From: Candidatus Woesearchaeota archaeon CG10_big_fil_rev_8_21_14_0_10_45_16
GTDB lineage: Archaea; Nanobdellota; Nanobdellia; Woesearchaeales; GW2011-AR9
DNA length: 64,000 nucleotides
NCBI GenBank assembly: GCA_002762785.1
Contig: PCXY01000005.1
Span: forward strand, 392,849 to 456,848
Reading direction: 5' to 3'
Within the stretch, counting starts at the first letter, position 1. Every line of letters starts with the position of its first letter. The notes beneath the pieces were generated by a model. The model searched no databases. It worked only from the letters and a program-made list of their open reading frames with translations, and was not told the DNA's origin. This document shows positions 3,625 through 61,458 of the stretch, piece by piece. A program made the translations under genes and the position numbers.

Positions 3625-4398
3625 TTGTTTTTTCTCTTTATAGATATGGTCTCGCCAGTAGAGTTTCGCGCCAGGATCGCTGACTTTTATCGTTTCTCTA
3701 AAGAGGAGCTTATCGGTCTGTTGGCGGCGGTCCTCTTTGCTGGTTTTATCTTCTCGTTCCGCGACTGGGGTGATCAGCAGTTTGATCTGGTCATCGGTCT
3801 GATCCATCTGTTTACGATGTTTTCCATCGCCTTCTTAAGTTTCTGGGTGCATCTTTCCTGTCAGAAACTATACGGGTTAAGCCAAGGTTATCTGGTGGAG
3901 TTCCGCTTATGGTGGACAGGCTTGTTCATCTCGCTGATCTTCGCTTTCTTTAGCTTTGGTTACATCCCTTTAGTGCTTATCGGCGGCGTCTTCGCTTCAT
4001 TCATGGTGCGTCAGCGCTTGGGGGAGTTCAGATATGGTTTCAGCTATCCTGAGAACGGCATCATCGCCATGTGGGGGCCTTTAGGCAACTTGATATTGGC
4101 TATCTTCTTCGCTATCGGTGCTTATGCCTTGCCGCAGAATTATTTTTTCCATAAAGGGTTGATCTTCAATTTGATCATGGCCGGCTGTAGTTTGATCCCG
4201 CTGCCGCAGCTTGACGGCCTATCAGTCTATTTTGGTTCTCGTTTTTGGTACCTGGTGATGATCATTGCCGTCGGATTGTCAGTTATATTGCTATGGCTCC
4301 TGCCTCAGGTTGGACTGGGAAAATTCGGGTTGATAACGGCTGTAGTCATCGCCGTCATCGTCAGTATCGTAACTTTACTGGTGAGTTCTGAAAAATGA
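3625..4398 (+). CDS. Polytopic membrane protein, site-2 protease (M50)-like but lacking HExxH
   Basis: Multiple TM helices and a C-terminal LIPLPQLDG motif like the S2P LDGG motif. The position expected for HExxH reads HLSCQ. Confidence 0.35.
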   Translation: MFFLFIDMVSPVEFRARIADFYRFSKEELIGLLAAVLFAGFIFSFRDWGDQQFDLVIGLIHLFTMFSIAFLSFWVHLSCQKLYGLSQGYLVEFRLWWTGLFISLIFAFFSFGYIPLVLIGGVFASFMVRQRLGEFRYGFSYPENGIIAMWGPLGNLILAIFFAIGAYALPQNYFFHKGLIFNLIMAGCSLIPLPQLDGLSVYFGSRFWYLVMIIAVGLSVILLWLLPQVGLGKFGLITAVVIAVIVSIVTLLVSSEK

Positions 4399-5861: not shown

Positions 5862-8060
5862 ATGATCCGCGATTTCTCACCTCGCTTATATCAGCAGACT
5901 ATCTTAGGCACGGCCGCCAGCAAAAACACTATGGTGGTGCTGCCGACGGGGATGGGAAAGACCGCTTTAGCCTTTCTGATGGCAGCCCAAAGGCTTAGCC
6001 AGTATCCTGATTCTAAAATTTTGATGCTGGCCCCGACCAAACCGTTGTGTGAACAGCACGTGGTCACGTTGCAGAAACATCTTACTATCCCCGAAGAGAA
6101 GATCGTCTTGTTCACCGGCAGCGTCAAGCCGGAAAAGCGTGCAGAGTTATGGAAAGAAGCTGCTGTCATCGTCAGCACACCGCAAGGGCTGGAGAATGAT
6201 GCCATCAATAAAAGAGTAAAATTAGAAGAGGTCAGCTGCCTGATCTTTGATGAAGCGCATCATGCGACGGGAGAGTATGCCTACGTCTGGCTGGCGTCAT
6301 ATTATGAAAAGGTCTGCCGTTTTCCTCGCATCCTGGCTCTTACCGCGTCTCCCGGCAGCGACATGGAGAAGATAAAAGAAGTCTGCCAGAACCTGCACAT
6401 CGAACGGGTGGAAGTCCGCACCGACAAAGATCATGATGTGGCACCGTATGTTCAGAAACTGGATGTGCAATGGGAAGAAGTTGATTTTCCGGAAGAATTC
6501 AAAAAGGTGCAGAAGTCATTGCAGGAATGCCGCAAGAGCAAGCTGCTGGAAGCGCAGACTCTGGGTCACTGCCGCAGCGCTGACTGTACTAAAGGCGAGC
6601 TGCTGCAATTACAGGGAGCGTTGCAGAGAGAGATATCCCAGGGAGAAAGAGATTTTGCCGTTTTACGTTCTATCTCGTTGATTGCGGAAGCGTTGAAAGT
6701 GGAGCATGGTCTTGAGCTGCTGGAATCACAAGGTATCCAGCAGACTTTTGATTACCTTAAGAAGATCCAGGCGGAATCGCTGACGAGCAAGGTCAAGGCC
6801 GTCAAGAACCTGGTGATGGATCCAAAGTTTAAAGAGGCGCTTTTCTTGGCGGAAGAGATCGTCAATAAAGATATCCATCATCCGAAGCTGGCCAGGATGC
6901 AGGGGATACTCCTCGAAGTGCTGCGTGAAATGCCAGATGCTAAGATCATCATCTTCACCCAGTTCCGAGATTCTGCCCAGGCTATTGTCGGAAAGTTGGA
7001 CGAACTGCGCATCAGCAACCATGTATTTTTTGGCCAAGCTAAGAAGAACGGCGTCGGCTTCTCTCAGAAACAACAGAAAGAGATCTTGGAAAAGTTCAGC
7101 AACGGCGGATTTAGTGTATTGGTAGCTACCTCGGTCGCGGAAGAAGGTTTGGACATCCCTAAAGTTGACAAGGTCATGTTCTACGAGCCAGTGCCGTCTG
7201 CCATCCGGGCTATCCAGCGTCGAGGCAGGACTGGAAGGCTGGAGAAAGGTCAGGTGACAGTGCTATTGACAAAAGGTACCAGAGATGAAGCGTATCGATG
7301 GGCTTCTCACCACAAGGAAAAACGGATGTATCGCAACCTGGAAAAACTGAAGAAAGAATTTTCTTTCCTTCATGAAAAACCCAAGACGACCTTGCAGCAA
7401 TTTATCCCTCGGGATACAGTGGTGGCTGTTCTGGCGGATCATCGCGAGAAGAATAATCGTATCGTCAAAGAGCTGATCGACCTAGGGGTTTCTGTCAAGA
7501 CCGGACAGCTGGAAAGCGCCGATTACGTCCTTTCCGGAAAAGTCGGTGTGGAGTTGAAGAAAGTTCCTGATTTTGTAGCTTCGATAATAGACGGGAGGTT
7601 GTTAGAACAGGTACGTGTTCTAAAAAGAAGTTTTGAGAAAGCGGTCCTGGTCATCGAGGGAGAAGAAGATATCTATGCTCTGCGTAAGGTCCATGCTAAT
7701 GCCATCAGGGGGATGCTGGCCTCCATCGTGCTGGATTTCGGCGTTCCTATCCTTTATACCAAAAGCCCTCTTGATACTGCTTCGTTACTAGCCGTGATGG
7801 CCAAACGCGAACAGAATAAAGATTCCGATTTTACTTATCATCCAGCCAAACCACGGTCTGCCAGAGAACAGCAGGAATTTATCGTGTCGGCCTTTCCGAC
7901 GATCGGCCCGTTAACTTCTCGGAGGTTGCTGGAGCATTTCGGTTCTGTCAAGAATTTAGTGAACGCGTCTCAGGAAGATCTGGTCGCTCTAGAGGGCATT
8001 GGCGAGAAGACAGCTTCTTTACTGGTAGAGATGTTCGAGAAGAAATACGAAAAGAAGTGA
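5862..8060 (+). CDS. hef: Hef helicase-nuclease (SF2 helicase + ERCC4/XPF nuclease + HhH2)
   Basis: Helicase motifs are present: VLPTGMGKT (motif I), DEAH, and a C-terminal helicase domain. The ERCC4 region aligns to Pyrococcus Hef (ADYVL...VELKKVPDFVASIIDGRL...NAIRG) and a terminal HhH pair follows. Confidence 0.85.
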   Translation: MIRDFSPRLYQQTILGTAASKNTMVVLPTGMGKTALAFLMAAQRLSQYPDSKILMLAPTKPLCEQHVVTLQKHLTIPEEKIVLFTGSVKPEKRAELWKEAAVIVSTPQGLENDAINKRVKLEEVSCLIFDEAHHATGEYAYVWLASYYEKVCRFPRILALTASPGSDMEKIKEVCQNLHIERVEVRTDKDHDVAPYVQKLDVQWEEVDFPEEFKKVQKSLQECRKSKLLEAQTLGHCRSADCTKGELLQLQGALQREISQGERDFAVLRSISLIAEALKVEHGLELLESQGIQQTFDYLKKIQAESLTSKVKAVKNLVMDPKFKEALFLAEEIVNKDIHHPKLARMQGILLEVLREMPDAKIIIFTQFRDSAQAIVGKLDELRISNHVFFGQAKKNGVGFSQKQQKEILEKFSNGGFSVLVATSVAEEGLDIPKVDKVMFYEPVPSAIRAIQRRGRTGRLEKGQVTVLLTKGTRDEAYRWASHHKEKRMYRNLEKLKKEFSFLHEKPKTTLQQFIPRDTVVAVLADHREKNNRIVKELIDLGVSVKTGQLESADYVLSGKVGVELKKVPDFVASIIDGRLLEQVRVLKRSFEKAVLVIEGEEDIYALRKVHANAIRGMLASIVLDFGVPILYTKSPLDTASLLAVMAKREQNKDSDFTYHPAKPRSAREQQEFIVSAFPTIGPLTSRRLLEHFGSVKNLVNASQEDLVALEGIGEKTASLLVEMFEKKYEKK

Positions 8061-15734: not shown

Positions 15735-15870
15735 AGCGCCCAGGGGGAGTTTCGTGCGCAGAGCACAGCTCGAACCCCCGTATGCACGCTATCAGCTTTT
15801 TCATCGCTCATGAGAGCTCTTCATAGCGGACGACTGCAGGCGTGTGCCTTAGCCGCTTGGCGATGGGCGC
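15735..15870 (-). tRNA. tRNA-Cys(GCA) with two introns (about 43 nt at 37/38; about 20 nt inside T-loop)
   Basis: On the minus strand the 5' acceptor GCGCCCA pairs with 3' TGGGCGC. The anticodon arm is CACGC-CUGCAG/intron/A-GCGUG with G37, and the discriminator is U73. T-arm is GGGGG-UUCGA[insert]CU-CCCCC. An oligo-T terminator follows immediately and a TATA box (ACTATATAAAG) lies about 27 nt upstream. Confidence 0.65.
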
Positions 15871-15893
15871 TTGGCAATCTCCCTAGATGGATT

Positions 15894-15904
15894 CTTTATA
15901 TAGT
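15894..15904 (-). promoter_or_regulatory. TATA box for tRNA-Cys
   Basis: AACTATATAAAG on the minus strand about 25-30 nt upstream of the tRNA 5' end. Confidence 0.4.
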
Positions 15905-15922
15905 TTTCTAGTCATATGATCC

Positions 15923-16549
15923 CTACTCGATCCTGAAAGAATCAAACCAATCTTTTTTGGAGAGCTTTCGAGGGATCTGGTTGAGCTCTTCTTTGGTGCC
16001 TTCAACAAAATAACTAAAAGTGAGAACTTCATCTCTCCTGTTAAATTCAAGACTGTTAAGCTTAGGTTTCCTTGTCCCTAAAGCGGAATCCAATTCTTCC
16101 TTTTCGATGATACGGTTGGTCTTGATAGTTATCTTCTTCTGATAAGAGCCAAGGCCTCTTTTCTCCAGGTAGATATCAAGGATCATCACCACCCACAATG
16201 AGCCGTAAAGGATGAACCCTTCCAGAAACTCGCCCACACCGATCAAAAGTCCGAAAATAGCAAACAGCCAGATGGTTGCGGCGGAGGTAAAACCTGAAAT
16301 CTTGTCAGTGGTCTTTATCAGGGCTCCAGCTCCCAGGAAACCGATGCCGGTGACGATAGAGCCTAATAGGGGCAATGGTTCGCCGGGGTTTAGGTTAAGC
16401 GCGGTTATGGCTAAGGCACAGGCTCCTAGAGAGACAAAAGTGAAAGTGCCGAAGCCGATAGGCTTATGCTGCCATTGCCGGGTCAGGCCGAAAACCAAAG
16501 CTAGGGTGAAAACAAGCAGGGACTTTTCCAGGATGATAATGTCGATCAT
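15923..16549 (-). CDS. MgtC/SapB family membrane protein
   Basis: N-terminal MgtC-like TM block (GIGFLGAGALIK, AATIWLFAIFGLLIGVGE) plus a soluble C-terminal domain. Confidence 0.55.
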   Translation of the reverse strand: MIDIIILEKSLLVFTLALVFGLTRQWQHKPIGFGTFTFVSLGACALAITALNLNPGEPLPLLGSIVTGIGFLGAGALIKTTDKISGFTSAATIWLFAIFGLLIGVGEFLEGFILYGSLWVVMILDIYLEKRGLGSYQKKITIKTNRIIEKEELDSALGTRKPKLNSLEFNRRDEVLTFSYFVEGTKEELNQIPRKLSKKDWFDSFRIE

Positions 16550-16608
16550 GATGCTTTTCCGACGCTAGAACTTCTATTTAAGCTTATGGTTTTAGCTATA
16601 GGTTTTAG

Positions 16609-17037
16609 CTATAACTTATGTCCGTACCTTTCCAGAAAACCAGGGAACTGTGAATGCAGCGGATCTGGTAAAGAATCTAAGCGGAACCAGCCGATCTCAT
16701 CAAACTTGTGGAGTTCGCCGATCTTAACTTTATTTTTATCTACCAGAACCTTGAAGAACATGGCCAGCCAATGAGTCTTAGTATTGTTATTTTCTCTGAA
16801 GATGTCTCCATAACCTAAAAATTCATATTCAAAGACATCCGTACAATATTCTTCTTTAATCTCTTTCCGCAAAGTTTCTTCGATAGTATAACCAAATTCC
16901 AGCCCGCCGCCGCCGACATCCCATCGCCCATGTTCATCCCGGCAGTTCTTCGACCTTTTGGCGAACAGAAAATTACCTTGACCATCGTGGCACAAGAAGA
17001 CGATACTTACCCCTGGGAAATCGATGCCTTTTTTCAT
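16609..17037 (-). CDS. NUDIX hydrolase
   Basis: Nudix box GGGLEFGYTIEETLRKEIKEEY. Confidence 0.75.
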   Translation of the reverse strand: MKKGIDFPGVSIVFLCHDGQGNFLFAKRSKNCRDEHGRWDVGGGGLEFGYTIEETLRKEIKEEYCTDVFEYEFLGYGDIFRENNNTKTHWLAMFFKVLVDKNKVKIGELHKFDEIGWFRLDSLPDPLHSQFPGFLERYGHKL

Positions 17038-17423
17038 TCTCTTATTTCCTCTACTAAATCTGAGATGTCATGAACTTGGCCTATCCAGGGGGTTACAGGA
17101 GAGACTTCTTTTTCAGGAAGTCTTCTTGTTCTTCTGAGTATATTTGCATATATTCTTCCAGGACGGGCTACGTTTTCCCAATGATCCATTATTTCTTGAT
17201 AGACATCTGGAGTGACGACATGGACATGTTCTACTAAGCCGAATGTTCTTCTTTCAAAACCCCAGCCGTTGCGGACATAAGTCCACTGACCTATGATTAT
17301 TGTGTCTCCTATCTCGATAGCATTGATCCTTGGGTCGTAACGAAGTTTCATCTGTTTTGGGACGCCCTCAACCCTGATATCAGAAACACGCAACTCTGCA
17401 GCTGTATATTTTAAATCTGCCAT
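17034..17423 (-). CDS. Hypothetical protein, possibly PUA/ASCH-like; start corrected to Met immediately after the tRNA-Arg terminator
   Basis: The track ORF's first 11 codons (MKVPSGPFFYK) translate the tRNA-Arg acceptor stem and oligo-T terminator. The ATG at 17423 follows the T-tract directly. Confidence 0.45.
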   Translation of the reverse strand: MADLKYTAAELRVSDIRVEGVPKQMKLRYDPRINAIEIGDTIIIGQWTYVRNGWGFERRTFGLVEHVHVVTPDVYQEIMDHWENVARPGRIYANILRRTRRLPEKEVSPVTPWIGQVHDISDLVEEIRE

Positions 17424-17435
17424 CTTGTAAAAAAA

Positions 17436-17601
17436 CGGGCCCGAGGGGACTTTCAAGGATACACGCTATCTTATGAGTTGGCGGCGAAGCCGCTCCGTCT
17501 CTCAGATGACGTGACATCTGTTTGAACCCCCGATCTACAGCTCTCGTCAAAGACTGGCTTTGTAGAAGGCTGTCGCCTTATCCAGGCTAGGCTACGGGCC
17601 C
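17436..17601 (-). tRNA. tRNA-Arg(UCU) with two introns (20 nt at 37/38; about 70 nt inside T-loop)
   Basis: Minus strand: acceptor GGGCCCG/CGGGCCC, perfect 4-bp D-stem GCCU/AGGC with AGCCUGGAUA loop, and anticodon arm ACAGC-CUUCUA/intron/A-GCUGU. T-arm is GGGGG-UUCAA[70-nt insert containing palindrome CAGAUGACGUGACAUCUG]GU-CCCCU. Discriminator G is followed by T7, and a TATA-like AAATATTTAAAAG lies about 25-37 nt upstream. Confidence 0.65.
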
Positions 17602-40212: not shown

Positions 40213-41283
40213 ATGATCACTGAACATTCAGCAGCCATCACAGGAGAGCCGTATCAAGGCGATGTCAATGCCAAGATGGATGTATTTTACAATCCTTTGA
40301 TGGTCTCTAACAGAAACGTCTCTGTGGTCTTACTAAACTCTATCCCTAACAAGAACATGAAGCTGGCCTTGCCTCTAGCTGGTTCCGGGATCAGAGCTTT
40401 CCGGTTCCTGAAAGAATTGAAGAAAGGCAAGATCAAAGAGCTATACGTCAACGATAAGAAGCATAATTTCAATGAGATATTTTCAAAAAATCTGGAATTG
40501 AATAAGATAGACAAGACCAAAGCAAACATCAGTAATGAAGACGCTACCTTGTTCATGCTTCATCAAGAAGGTTTTGATTATATCGACATCGATCCGTTCG
40601 GTTCGCCGAACCCGTTCCTGGCGGCAGCTATCGCCAGGATTTCCAGAAAAGGGATATTGGCCATAACGGCTACGGACACGGCAGCCTTGACGGGAACGTA
40701 TCCTAAAGTTACTAAAAGGAAATACTGGGGGACATCGGTGAAAAATCATCTGATGCATGAGACTGGTTTGCGGATACTGATACGGAAAATCCAGTTGCAA
40801 GGGATCCAGTTCGAGAAAGCTTTGACGCCAGTATTGGCATATCACAAAGATCATTATTTCCGCGTCTATTTCCGCTCTGAGAAGGGCAAGGAGAGATGCG
40901 ACCAGATCATTAAACAGCACAAGTATCTTCTTTTTGACGGGAAAACTCTTGATTTCAAGATCTCTGACTATAACAAAGAAGATGGATATCTTTACATCGG
41001 GCCGTTATGGGCTGGTCTTTTAGCTGATATCTCATTGTTGAAAAAAATGTGCAAGAACAACCCTTTTCCGGAGGAACAGAAATTTTTAGAAATATTAAGG
41101 GATGAACTGCCGGTCGTCGGTTTCCATGACATCCACGCTTTGGCCAAGGCTTACAGGCTGGAGATACCAAAGCTGGAAGGGCTGTTAAAAAGTTTGAAAG
41201 GGACCCGGACGCATTTCCTGCCGACGGGGATAAAGACCACAAAAAAAGCGGCTGAGATAATAAAAATAATAAAAAAATCTTAA
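40213..41283 (+). CDS. trm1: tRNA (guanine26-N2)-dimethyltransferase Trm1
   Basis: FYNPLMVSNRN; ALPLAGSGIRAFRF; DIDPFGSP. Confidence 0.8.
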   Translation: MITEHSAAITGEPYQGDVNAKMDVFYNPLMVSNRNVSVVLLNSIPNKNMKLALPLAGSGIRAFRFLKELKKGKIKELYVNDKKHNFNEIFSKNLELNKIDKTKANISNEDATLFMLHQEGFDYIDIDPFGSPNPFLAAAIARISRKGILAITATDTAALTGTYPKVTKRKYWGTSVKNHLMHETGLRILIRKIQLQGIQFEKALTPVLAYHKDHYFRVYFRSEKGKERCDQIIKQHKYLLFDGKTLDFKISDYNKEDGYLYIGPLWAGLLADISLLKKMCKNNPFPEEQKFLEILRDELPVVGFHDIHALAKAYRLEIPKLEGLLKSLKGTRTHFLPTGIKTTKKAAEIIKIIKKS

Positions 41284-42659: not shown

Positions 42660-43502
42660 ATGGGTACTGTTCACATAAAAGATAGAGCTGAACTACAGCG
42701 GAAGATCGATCGTATCAAGAAAGATGGTATTTCTTCACTGCATGTCATCTCGGATTTTGACAAGACTCTTACCACTGCTTTTGTCGATGGGGAGAAAGTG
42801 CAGTCTACCTATGCTCTCATCCGCAACGGCAAGTATCTCTCGCCAGAGTACGTGCAAAGGTCGCATGCTCTTTTTGATAAGTACCATCCGTATGAGGCGG
42901 CTGACGATCTCATGGAAGAAGAGCGTAATGCCATGATGGTCCGTTGGTGGAAAGAGCATTATCAGATGATGGTGGACTGCGGACTCAGTCAAGCGGTCAT
43001 CAAGGACATCATCAGGAGCGGCAAGTTGCGTCTGCGGGCTGGAGCTTCTGCTCTGTTCCATTCTTTAGCTGATAAAAACATCCCTCTCCTTATCTTTTCA
43101 GCTGGCCAGGGTGATATCATCACTGAGTTTTTGAAACAGAATGGTTATGATACGCCCAATGTTCATGTAATCTCTAATTTCTTCACTTTCTCTGCTGACG
43201 GCTTGGCCGACGGATATAAAGAACCGTTTATCCACACTTTCAACAAGAACGAGGTGGTCGTTCGGGAAACCCCTTATTATCAGCAGGTCAAGGACAGACG
43301 TCATGTTATCTTGTTAGGCGACAGTCTCGGCGACCTGGGGATGTCAGAAGGCCTGGAGCATGACGTCATCATCAAGATCGGCTTCCTCAATGAGAACAAA
43401 GAAAAATTTCTGAAGAAGTATCTGAATATGTTCGATGTTGTTATCACCGATGACAGCGGGATGGAGTATGTCGATGATATACTCACACAAGTCTTACGGT
43501 AA
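42660..43502 (+). CDS. HAD-superfamily pyrimidine 5'-nucleotidase (UMPH-1-like)
   Basis: DFDKTLT motif I, cap domain, GDSLGD motif. Confidence 0.65.
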   Translation: MGTVHIKDRAELQRKIDRIKKDGISSLHVISDFDKTLTTAFVDGEKVQSTYALIRNGKYLSPEYVQRSHALFDKYHPYEAADDLMEEERNAMMVRWWKEHYQMMVDCGLSQAVIKDIIRSGKLRLRAGASALFHSLADKNIPLLIFSAGQGDIITEFLKQNGYDTPNVHVISNFFTFSADGLADGYKEPFIHTFNKNEVVVRETPYYQQVKDRRHVILLGDSLGDLGMSEGLEHDVIIKIGFLNENKEKFLKKYLNMFDVVITDDSGMEYVDDILTQVLR

Positions 43503-44559
43503 CAACACCTTTCTCCACTTCAAACTTTACTGGCAGGAATCTTTCTACAACGTGGATGTTGGTGAGAGCATGATCGCTGACTTTACCCGTTTTCATGACC
43601 GATCCCGGCAGTAAAGCCAGATACGGTATCAGCTGGTCAGCCAGGAAATGGTCGACGACCGCACCGGAAGAGATCTCTTCTTTCAATTTATCAGCTGCTT
43701 CCTTGGCTATGTCTTCCGACCGTTTCCCTTTTTCGATAAGCACGTCGCTGCCTAGTATCAGCGGGTTCTCGTAATCAGCTTGTCCATCCCGGCTGAAGAT
43801 AGCCCACAGCAGGACTTCTCCTCCGGTACTGAGACTGTCGGCATATTCCACGTCGATGGTGATGGGCACATCATGATCTTTAAGGTATGGCTTTATGCTG
43901 TCGTTGATCCTGCGGCCAACTTCTTTCTCTTCCAGCTCTTTGGAGAGGTTGATGAACCCTTTGATATGTTCTAAAGTTCCTTGTTGTTTCAGATCATAAA
44001 GACGTAAATCATGTCTTTTTTCGATGAATTCGGCAAAGCTGTGATATCGGGGAACGATCTCTACTTCTACTAGACCATTGCCTTTTGGATAGTACCCTCT
44101 TTTCAGAACTTTCAGCTCTATCTTTTCCACGAACCTTCGCAGCTGCGGGAACAAGATGTTGGAGATGTAATCTACGGAAGCCTGCCATTTACCGCAAGTT
44201 CCTCCGGAAATCTTTAAAGTTATTTTACCTGGCGCGAATAAGCAAGGTGGAATTATCGCTTGTAGTACTAGGGAGATACTACCAGCAGTACCAATCTCAA
44301 TTTCATAGATTCCTCTCTTAACTTTTCCAGGAACAAAACGAAGTTTCTCAGAACCAATATTGACTTCGTTGGTTTTGCCGTTACAGATTTGTTCCAAAGC
44401 TTTGATAGCTGCTAAGTGCTGTGCTTTCAATCCCGGCTGGGGTCTGCCGGCGCGGATGTTGTCGACTTCAAAAGTAAGGCCGGTCAAGGCAGAGAAAGCT
44501 AAAGCGGTGCGTATCAAAGCGCCGCCGCCTTCTCCATGTGAACCGTCAAGGAAGATCAT
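43483..44559 (-). CDS. rtcA: RNA 3'-terminal phosphate cyclase
   Basis: DGSHGEGGGALIRTALAFSALTG and a catalytic His region. Confidence 0.85.
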   Translation of the reverse strand: MIFLDGSHGEGGGALIRTALAFSALTGLTFEVDNIRAGRPQPGLKAQHLAAIKALEQICNGKTNEVNIGSEKLRFVPGKVKRGIYEIEIGTAGSISLVLQAIIPPCLFAPGKITLKISGGTCGKWQASVDYISNILFPQLRRFVEKIELKVLKRGYYPKGNGLVEVEIVPRYHSFAEFIEKRHDLRLYDLKQQGTLEHIKGFINLSKELEEKEVGRRINDSIKPYLKDHDVPITIDVEYADSLSTGGEVLLWAIFSRDGQADYENPLILGSDVLIEKGKRSEDIAKEAADKLKEEISSGAVVDHFLADQLIPYLALLPGSVMKTGKVSDHALTNIHVVERFLPVKFEVEKGVVTVRLV

Positions 44560-44645: not shown

Positions 44646-44807
44646 GGGGATGTAGTATAACCTGGCAGAATAGGGGCCTCCAGTAATGGAAGTTTGAGCT
44701 TCGGCGATGATAATAACTTTCCCTGAAGTCAGCCTTAGATCTGGGTTCAAATAGTTGACGACGAGGCAACGACCGAAAGCGTCAGCTTGATTGTCCCAGC
44801 ATCCCCA
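44646..44807 (+). tRNA. tRNA-Trp(CCA) with two introns (about 47 nt at 37/38; about 42 nt inside T-loop)
   Basis: Acceptor GGGGAUG/CAUCCCC, anticodon loop CUCCAG/intron/A, T-arm CUGGG-UUCAA[insert]GU-CCCAG. Discriminator A is followed by a T6 tract. The first intron carries UGAUAA and CUGA box-like elements. Confidence 0.55.
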
Positions 44808-61372: not shown

Positions 61373-61458
61373 AGCCTCTGGAGGGAATTGAACCCTCGAC
61401 CTGCGCTTCTCTCTGGGATACATACGAGAGCGCCGCTATACCGCTAAGCCACAGAGGC
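61373..61458 (-). tRNA. tRNA-Thr(CGU) with 14-nt canonical intron
   Basis: Acceptor GCCUCUG/CAGAGGC, anticodon arm GCGCU-CUCGUA/intron/A-AGCGC, intact T-arm GAGGG-UUCAAUU-CCCUC, discriminator U. A T7 terminator follows and a TATA-like element lies about 25-35 nt upstream. Confidence 0.7.

Follow-up and report, generated by a model that had tools for sequence, protein, structure and literature searches.

Multi-intron tRNA genes were reportedly described in the Thermoproteales by Sugahara et al. in 2007 and 2008 and by Fujishima et al. in 2010. In these hyperthermophilic crenarchaea, BHB introns occur in such genes at non-canonical positions (reviewed in PMC4033280 and PMC4090602). Position 59/60, in the T-loop, belongs to the listed non-canonical sites of archaeal tRNA introns (PMC4090602, PMC4033280), whose lengths range from 11 to 129 nt (PMC4090602). 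DPANN lineages, including one Woesearchaeota genome, also carry many disrupted tRNA genes, which have been linked to variants of the splicing endonuclease EndA with an L3 loop (Kaneta et al. 2018, PMC5829648), and incomplete DPANN tRNA sets point to disrupted genes that escaped detection (PMC5829648). Two further archaeal systems are relevant here: the split tRNA genes of Nanoarchaeum equitans, a DPANN archaeon with BHB-like junctions processed by EndA, and the tRNA-Trp(CCA) gene of Haloferax and other Euryarchaeota, which has a long structured BHB intron containing a box C/D guide RNA (PMC4090602).

We analysed a 64,000-nt window, by which we mean the whole stretch of DNA studied, from a Crystal Geyser Woesearchaeota MAG (DPANN). 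One of its gaps holds, in all likelihood, a real two-intron tRNA-Arg(UCU) gene (Table 1). Like the Thermoproteales genes, it combines a canonical 37/38 intron with a non-canonical one, both at strict or relaxed BHB splice sites, and its intron lengths fall within 11-129 nt (PMC4090602). Similar introns in different tRNA species are also common to both cases, being represented here by the T-loop introns of tRNA-Trp in the window and of a tRNA-Arg(UCU) ortholog (L076). The host, however, is a mesophilic groundwater archaeon and not a hyperthermophile, the enzyme expected would be a DPANN-type EndA with the L3 loop (PMC5829648) instead of the (alpha-beta)2 enzyme with the crenarchaeal loop, and, unlike in the Thermoproteales, site 59/60 is strongly recurrent in the tRNA-Arg(UCU) and tRNA-Cys genes of our sample. 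Closer to the host are the substrates of the epsilon2 EndA of ARMAN-2/Micrarchaeum and the disrupted tRNA genes of DPANN, all from the same superphylum; the DPANN survey gives proportions per genome and not this tRNA-Arg gene (PMC5829648). The split genes of N. equitans are separate pieces joined in trans, whereas here three colinear exons form one transcription unit. The euryarchaeal tRNA-Trp(CCA) intron is likewise a long structured BHB intron but lies at 37/38, whereas the tRNA-Arg intron is in the T-loop and has no C box. The literature searched does not mention 59/60 as a hot spot in tRNA-Arg(UCU) or tRNA-Cys of Woesearchaeota; on tRNA introns of this group it yielded only PMC5829648 and unrelated group I intron work. 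The gene is a further archaeal multi-intron tRNA gene of a known type, and it reveals no new mechanism.

The 166-nt pre-tRNA is encoded by the minus strand (17601..17436), which reads GGGCCCG UA GCCU AGCCUGGAUA AGGC G ACAGC CUUCUA (20 nt) A GCUGU AGAUC GGGGG UUCAAA (71 nt) U CCCCU CGGGCCC G. The acceptor stem GGGCCCG/CGGGCCC has seven perfect pairs and is followed by U8 and A9; the D-stem GCCU/AGGC closes a D-loop with G18, G19 and A20, the last typical of tRNA-Arg. The anticodon stem ACAGC/GCUGU carries the loop CUUCUA...A, with the anticodon UCU, A37 and the 20-nt insert 3′ of A37. After the T-stem GGGGG/CCCCU come the discriminator G, a T7 run, ACAAG and the ATG at 17423, as the initial annotation had described for the oligo-T and the downstream start. 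Removal of the 20-nt and 71-nt introns leaves a 75-nt tRNA with stems of 7, 4, 5 and 5 bp, anticodon and T loops of 7 nt and all 21 pairs intact. It has U8, A14, G18, G19, A20, A21, U33, a purine at 37 and a UUCRAAU T-loop, matches every invariant column of an alignment of 31 orthologs and is identified as tRNA-Arg(tct) by ARAGORN, with a cloverleaf that evaluates to -33.0 kcal/mol. The initial annotation had proposed a two-intron tRNA-Arg(UCU), and all the cloverleaf elements that it listed are present.

Table 1. Coordinates of the tRNA-Arg(UCU) gene parts, of its neighbour and of other features of the window
Feature	Coordinates	Strand	Description and basis
TATA-like A/T-rich box AUAUUUAAAA	17627..17636	minus	-35 to -26 from mature 5′ end; candidate archaeal promoter; sequence read
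Exon 1, tRNA nt 1-37	17563..17601	minus	Acceptor 5′ strand, D-arm, anticodon stem 5′ strand, CUUCUA
Intron 1, 20 nt, CAAAGCCAGUCUUUGACGAG	17543..17562	minus	Canonical 37/38; ortholog loop CUUCUAA, ARAGORN -i, BHB register
Exon 2, tRNA nt 38-59	17521..17542	minus	A38, anticodon stem 3′ strand, variable loop AGAUC, GGGGG, UUCAAA
Intron 2, 71 nt	17450..17520	minus	Non-canonical 59/60 (T-loop); BHB register; coordinates confirmed by BLAST
Exon 3, tRNA nt 60-73	17436..17449	minus	U60, CCCCU, acceptor 3′ strand CGGGCCC, discriminator G; CCA not encoded
Oligo-T run (T7)	17429..17435	minus	Candidate archaeal terminator, directly 3′ of discriminator; sequence read
Downstream ORF, 129 aa (ORF129)	17034..17423	minus	PIN73610 / COV20_05290; start ATG 17423
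tRNA-Cys(GCA), two introns	15735..15870	minus	Missed by ARAGORN default and Rfam; locus tags 05275/05280 consecutive
tRNA-Cys intron at 37/38, 43 nt	15833..15791	minus	
tRNA-Cys intron at 59/60, 20 nt	15768..15749	minus	Perfect hBHBh′
tRNA-Trp(CCA), two introns	44646..44807	plus	Scanner and ARAGORN; apparently unannotated
tRNA-Trp intron at 59/60, 42 nt	44752..44793	plus	H 3/4, 8-bp h′
tRNA-Thr(CGU), 14-nt canonical intron	61373..61458	minus	Sole tRNA found by default tools
RtcA (RNA 3′-terminal phosphate cyclase)	43483..44559	minus	Adjoins tRNA-Trp, divergent
Trm1 (tRNA G26 dimethyltransferase)	40213..41283	plus	3 kb from tRNA-Trp

The flanks of the gene resemble those of the other tRNA genes of the window. 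An A/T-rich box ends 23-26 nt upstream of the mature 5′ end in all four of them, and a run of 6-7 T directly follows the gene in three, the T7 of tRNA-Thr being located three nt downstream. The box upstream of tRNA-Arg probably serves as its promoter.

To place the exon junctions we relied on orthologs. Scanning GTDB species representatives with a D-arm plus anticodon pattern yielded 75 tRNA-Arg(UCU) loci, about 45 of which are intronless 75-mers (31 distinct sequences). All 31 share the anticodon loop sequence CUUCUAA and the T-loop sequence UUCRAAU, with A59 and U60 invariant. The spliced tRNA-Arg is identical at 73 of 75 positions to the intronless L034, which scores 70.7 bits with Rfam RF00005, and differs from it only by G57A and the discriminator. 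A profile HMM of the 31 orthologs gave 81.8 bits to the target spliced at 37/38 and 59/60 and 54.2 bits to the unspliced sequence. Both junctions are unambiguous because a one-nucleotide shift of either alters an invariant base. The 37/38 position of the 20-nt intron, already proposed in the initial annotation, was recovered both from the ortholog loop and by ARAGORN -i; a 38/39 variant scored lower (76.9 bits). For the T-loop, the insert was there as announced, but its placement at 58/59 with a length of 70 nt was wrong: it is 71 nt long and lies at 59/60, the mature T-loop being UUCAAAU and not UUCAAGU. An intron of 70-71 nt at 58/59 does give a splice variant that ARAGORN also accepts as tRNA-Arg(tct). 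We nevertheless consider it extremely unlikely, given the invariance of both flanking bases in the orthologs, its lower profile score (77.2 versus 81.8 bits) and a helix and bulge geometry that cuts at AA|C and AG|U, that is, at 59/60, in the target as in 17 other introns. The observation that tRNA-Cys and tRNA-Trp share the insertion point of tRNA-Arg stands, with the site corrected in the same way.

The two junctions coincide with splicing motifs. In a BHB motif, a 3-nt bulge lies on either side of a 4-bp helix, and each bulge is cut 3′ of its second nucleotide. We checked this geometry against the canonical 37/38 case and PMC4090602. Intron 2 has a strict motif in which U54, U55, C56 and A57 pair with UGAA (17455..17452) at four of four positions, the bulges are A58 A59|C and A G|U60, and the outer helix on the exon side is the 5-bp T-stem. 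On the intron side, h′ begins with two contiguous pairs (A:U and G:C); beyond a 1-nt bulge, pairing resumes and extends as a long irregular rod, closed at its apex by the hairpin GCGGC-UUC-GCCGC. This hairpin is a triloop and not a C(UUCG)G tetraloop, as the UUCG type reported initially would be, and a supposed 18-nt perfect palindrome, for which plus-strand letters had been quoted, turned out to be a 6-bp inverted repeat (CAGAUG/CAUCUG) with a 6-nt spacer, which the best fold replaces by long-range cross-intron pairing. Intron 1 has a relaxed motif: the central helix CUUC:GACG is paired at three of four positions, with one U.C mismatch, the bulges are U36 A37|C and A G|A38, h is the 5-bp anticodon stem and h′ has 4 bp (AAAG:CUUU). 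A 4-bp central helix, two 3-nt bulges and outer helices of at least 2 bp are therefore recognizable in both introns, in relaxed form in intron 1. Bare BHB enumeration did not exceed shuffled sequences (3 versus 3.5 strict motifs, 26 versus 26.9 relaxed ones), so that the motif counts only through its coincidence with junctions fixed by orthologs. The BHB search proposed with the initial annotation found such a coincidence at both junctions, with a per-site chance, from the shuffle rates, of about 3e-4 for the strict motif of intron 2 and 3e-3 for the one-mismatch motif of intron 1.

We extended the junction alignment to 18 introns, comprising 14 of tRNA-Arg (13 orthologs and the target), those of tRNA-Cys and tRNA-Trp in the window, one of tRNA-Ser and one of tRNA-Ala. 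Over this set the BHB model was paired at 92.4% of positions, compared with at most 67% when the 3′ partners were slid, and the H helix at 97%. The pair between position 57 and intron position i-6 was GC in 9 introns, AU in 7 and GU in 2, which represents compensatory change between exon and intron. The first h′ pair was formed in 15 of the 18 introns and the second in only 8, so the 5′ side of the motif is often relaxed, in keeping with the broad-specificity EndA variants described in DPANN (PMC5829648). The sequence data thus show the gene anatomy, the junctions set against intronless orthologs and the BHB geometry with its covariation. Folding predictions point the other way: the unconstrained MFE of -68.5 kcal/mol corresponds to slipped registers without any BHB, and the BHB-constrained fold, at -54.1 kcal/mol, is 14 kcal/mol worse, a preference that counts against the BHB-intron explanation. 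Folded alone, intron 2 has an energy of -23.9 kcal/mol (z -2.74). Its 71 nt contain no C box (RUGAUGA) of a box C/D guide RNA, no UGAUGA and a single CUGA inside a helix; hence nothing points to a guide RNA.

The gene is hidden from standard tools, as the initial annotation had stated. In the whole raw window, ARAGORN with default settings and Rfam at its gathering threshold each returned a single tRNA (61458..61373), and the E-value mode of Rfam added no further tRNA matches over the same sequence. On the raw 351-nt region the Rfam tRNA model reached 15.2 bits against a gathering score of 29, with the 5′ part aligned around a 22-nt insertion. The lineage covariance model R1, built from the orthologs, gave 46.5 bits (E 1.4e-11) on 17601..17523, only the 5′ three-quarters of the gene; its alignment stops at the T-loop with a mis-paired acceptor stem, Infernal being unable to bridge the 71-nt insert. 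Once the 59/60 intron alone was removed, ARAGORN -i called tRNA-Arg(tct) and found the 20-nt anticodon intron by itself, as i(40,20). Our scanner requires a 7-bp acceptor stem, a 5-bp T-stem and UUCRA, tolerates a gap of any length within the T-loop and hands the sequence, with this gap taken out at 59/60, to ARAGORN for validation with anticodon introns allowed. It recovered four tRNA genes in the real window, Trp(CCA), Cys(GCA), Arg(UCU) and Thr(CGU), and no tRNA in either the reversed window or ten shuffles. In the GenBank record, COV20_05275, 05280, 05290 and 05300 and the proteins PIN73607 to PIN73612 run consecutively across the tRNA-Arg and tRNA-Cys positions, and tRNA-Trp is flanked by locus tags 05465 and 05470. 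From these consecutive tags we therefore infer that all three two-intron genes (Arg, Cys and Trp) are missing from the record. The BHB models of tRNAscan-SE 2.0 were trained on Crenarchaeota/Euryarchaeota and Thaumarchaeota (PMC8450103).

The tRNA-Cys and tRNA-Trp genes each combine a 37/38 intron, of 47 nt in tRNA-Trp, with a 59/60 intron, so that three of the four tRNA genes of the window are interrupted at 59/60. The motif of the tRNA-Cys T-loop intron has H UUCG:CGAA and a 5-bp h′. The T-loop intron of tRNA-Trp is identical in 35 of 45 columns to that of the tRNA-Arg(UCU) gene of L076 (about 7025-7174), with a score of 21 for a shuffle maximum of 9 (z 7.7). This likeness suggests, at the sequence level, that introns move between tRNA species. 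By eye, the same tRNA-Trp intron also resembles one in the tRNA-Ala(CGC) gene of L041 (about 4278-4385). Without intron mode, ARAGORN labels tRNA-Thr(CGU) wrongly, as tRNA-??? with a 4-base anticodon 'tgta'. The genes for RtcA and Trm1, which act in RNA-end or tRNA maturation, are close to these intron-rich tRNA genes.

T-loop inserts of 13-68 nt were present in 13 other tRNA-Arg(UCU) loci, always in the form UUCRAA|N...RA(A/G)AG|U, and ten of these 13 belong to the 43 loci labelled Woesearchaeota, Nanoarchaeota or Pacearchaeota. Together with their frequency in the window, this bears out the lineage habit of T-loop introns that had been suggested initially. The comparison with related loci, also proposed then, had a divided outcome: the insertion site is recurrent, and the sequence of the 71-nt intron has no relatives in the fetched loci or the metagenomes scanned. 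A blastn-short search against 76 loci and the window returned only the intron itself, and the 43 matches of a metagenome scan with its apical 19-mer were all chance ones with unrelated flanks. The tRNA-Arg locus is also present on a 4.1-kb ENA contig (L001). The window aIF5B is 100% identical to a protein of 'Candidatus Woesearchaeota archaeon CG10_big_fil_rev_8_21_14...'; its next-best matches do not exceed 78% identity, which leaves no close relative to compare. Across tRNA-Arg(UCU) genes, the introns at 59/60 fall into at least five unrelated families. Two conserved ones, of 40 nt and 65-68 nt (z 7-12 versus shuffles), occur in L009/L024/L058 and L053/L061/L073, respectively, and the target intron lies outside both. 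Four orthologs (L010, L030, L075 and L076) have an insert of 24-30 nt at a third site, around 42/43 in the 3′ strand of the anticodon stem (AGCUG[AG...GCUUAA]UAGAUC); L076 has this insert plus a 59/60 intron. Tentatively, and with somewhat less than even confidence, we propose that mobile BHB introns have a hot spot at 59/60 in Woesearchaeota, with related introns across tRNA species and genomes.

These data also bear on whether the gene is alive. It might be a dead gene in which the 71-nt T-loop insertion cannot be spliced, decoding being left to another tRNA-Arg(UCU) copy elsewhere in the genome; a BHB conformer that is not the MFE, an insert without relatives in the fetched loci or the metagenome scan and the silence of standard tools and GenBank annotation would agree with this. 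However, the intact pairs and conserved positions, exons almost identical to those of an intact ortholog, a strict BHB exactly at the junction, a promoter-like box and a terminator that have both been kept, introns with covarying BHB pairing at the same site in 10 of 43 DPANN-labelled orthologs and the like construction of tRNA-Cys and tRNA-Trp in the same window make a dead gene very unlikely.

Immediately downstream, the initial annotation had noted a spurious N-terminal extension of the neighbouring ORF. The ORF at 17034..17456 does start within the tRNA gene, at a TTG inside intron 2, and reads MKVPSGPFFYK ahead of ATG 17423, these 11 codons overlapping the end of intron 2, the 3′ exon and the T7 terminator. 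It exists only in a mechanical ORF list: in NCBI, JGI and ENA alike the gene is called from the ATG, with 129 aa, so the extension is only an artefact of a listing rule that takes the first start after a stop. A search for homologs of ORF129 among 5.8 billion clusters returned nothing except itself, and homologs thus cannot test its N-terminus. One could still suppose that the locus, instead of encoding a tRNA, belongs to this protein gene as its 5′ part, translated from TTG 17456 (140 aa) or serving as an mRNA leader, as the frame is open from the TTG through the ATG and no obvious separate promoter precedes the ATG, which lies 13 nt after the tRNA. We regard this as hardly conceivable, since the three public calls agree on the ATG form, the additional codons cover a T7 run and a GC-rich acceptor strand, no homologs back them and the tRNA evidence accounts fully for the sequence. 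The ORF129 ATG comes directly behind the T7, without a TATA-like box at -26, and the stop codon overlaps the start of a Nudix gene (ATGA); this operon may be expressed via read-through and processing of the tRNA transcript.

Synteny of six neighbouring proteins with the 75 loci was limited to a Nudix homolog (L056) and a cyclophilin (L035). In many Woesearchaeota loci, tRNA-Arg(UCU) and tRNA-Cys(GCA) are closely paired on one strand, as a tandem with 2-25 nt between them (L020, L031, L036, L040, L053, L057, L058, L060, L061, L066, L068, L069, L072 and L073). In the window, ORF129, Nudix and MgtC separate the two tRNA genes (15735..17601), and L056 has the order Arg, Nudix (63% identical), Cys, with 59/60 introns in both tRNAs. 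Three loci titled 'uncultured Methanosarcinales' (L031, L035 and L036) resemble Woesearchaeota: all have 59/60 introns, L031 and L036 have the tandem, and the cyclophilin of L035 is 56% identical to that of the window; these MAGs may be mislabelled taxonomically.

We consider it very probable that 17601..17436 is a functional Woesearchaeota tRNA-Arg(UCU) gene with two protein-spliced BHB introns. By analogy with established archaeal tRNA splicing, its transcription, cleavage and ligation would proceed as follows. A transcript initiated at its own TATA-type promoter and ended at the T7 run would give a pre-tRNA of about 166 nt. In it, the 3′ end of intron 1 would pair with nt 32-35 of the anticodon loop, and UGAA, close to where intron 2 ends on its 3′ side, with nt 54-57 of the T-loop (UUCA). 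Each pairing would create a 4-bp helix and two 3-nt bulges on opposite strands, resting on a 5-bp tRNA stem. EndA would cut between bulge nucleotides 2 and 3, at 37|38 and 59|60, and the RtcB ligase would join the three exons into the 75-nt tRNA with loops CUUCUAA and UUCAAAU. RNase P and RNase Z would trim the ends, after which CCA would be added, as it is not encoded. A Pfam scan of 28 window ORFs detected neither EndA nor RtcB, the window being a 64-kb part of a contig of ~560 kb.

Recognition of this gene restores a decoder of AGA codons, putatively essential, to a genome in which it seemingly had no annotation, and removes a false ORF start; the same method recovers tRNA-Cys and tRNA-Trp. 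The tRNA sets of DPANN MAGs are under-called with BHB models derived from Crenarchaeota, Euryarchaeota and Thaumarchaeota (PMC8450103), and the 59/60 introns, with their covarying exon-intron pairing, provide a training set for a DPANN-specific intron model as well as substrates for studying the specificity of DPANN EndA. If the invisibility of three out of four tRNA genes in this window were general, much of the 'incomplete tRNA set' of DPANN would be an annotation artefact. Likewise, if the mobile-intron hot spot is true, intron transposition like that of the Thermoproteales would have arisen independently in Woesearchaeota, alongside a different type of EndA.
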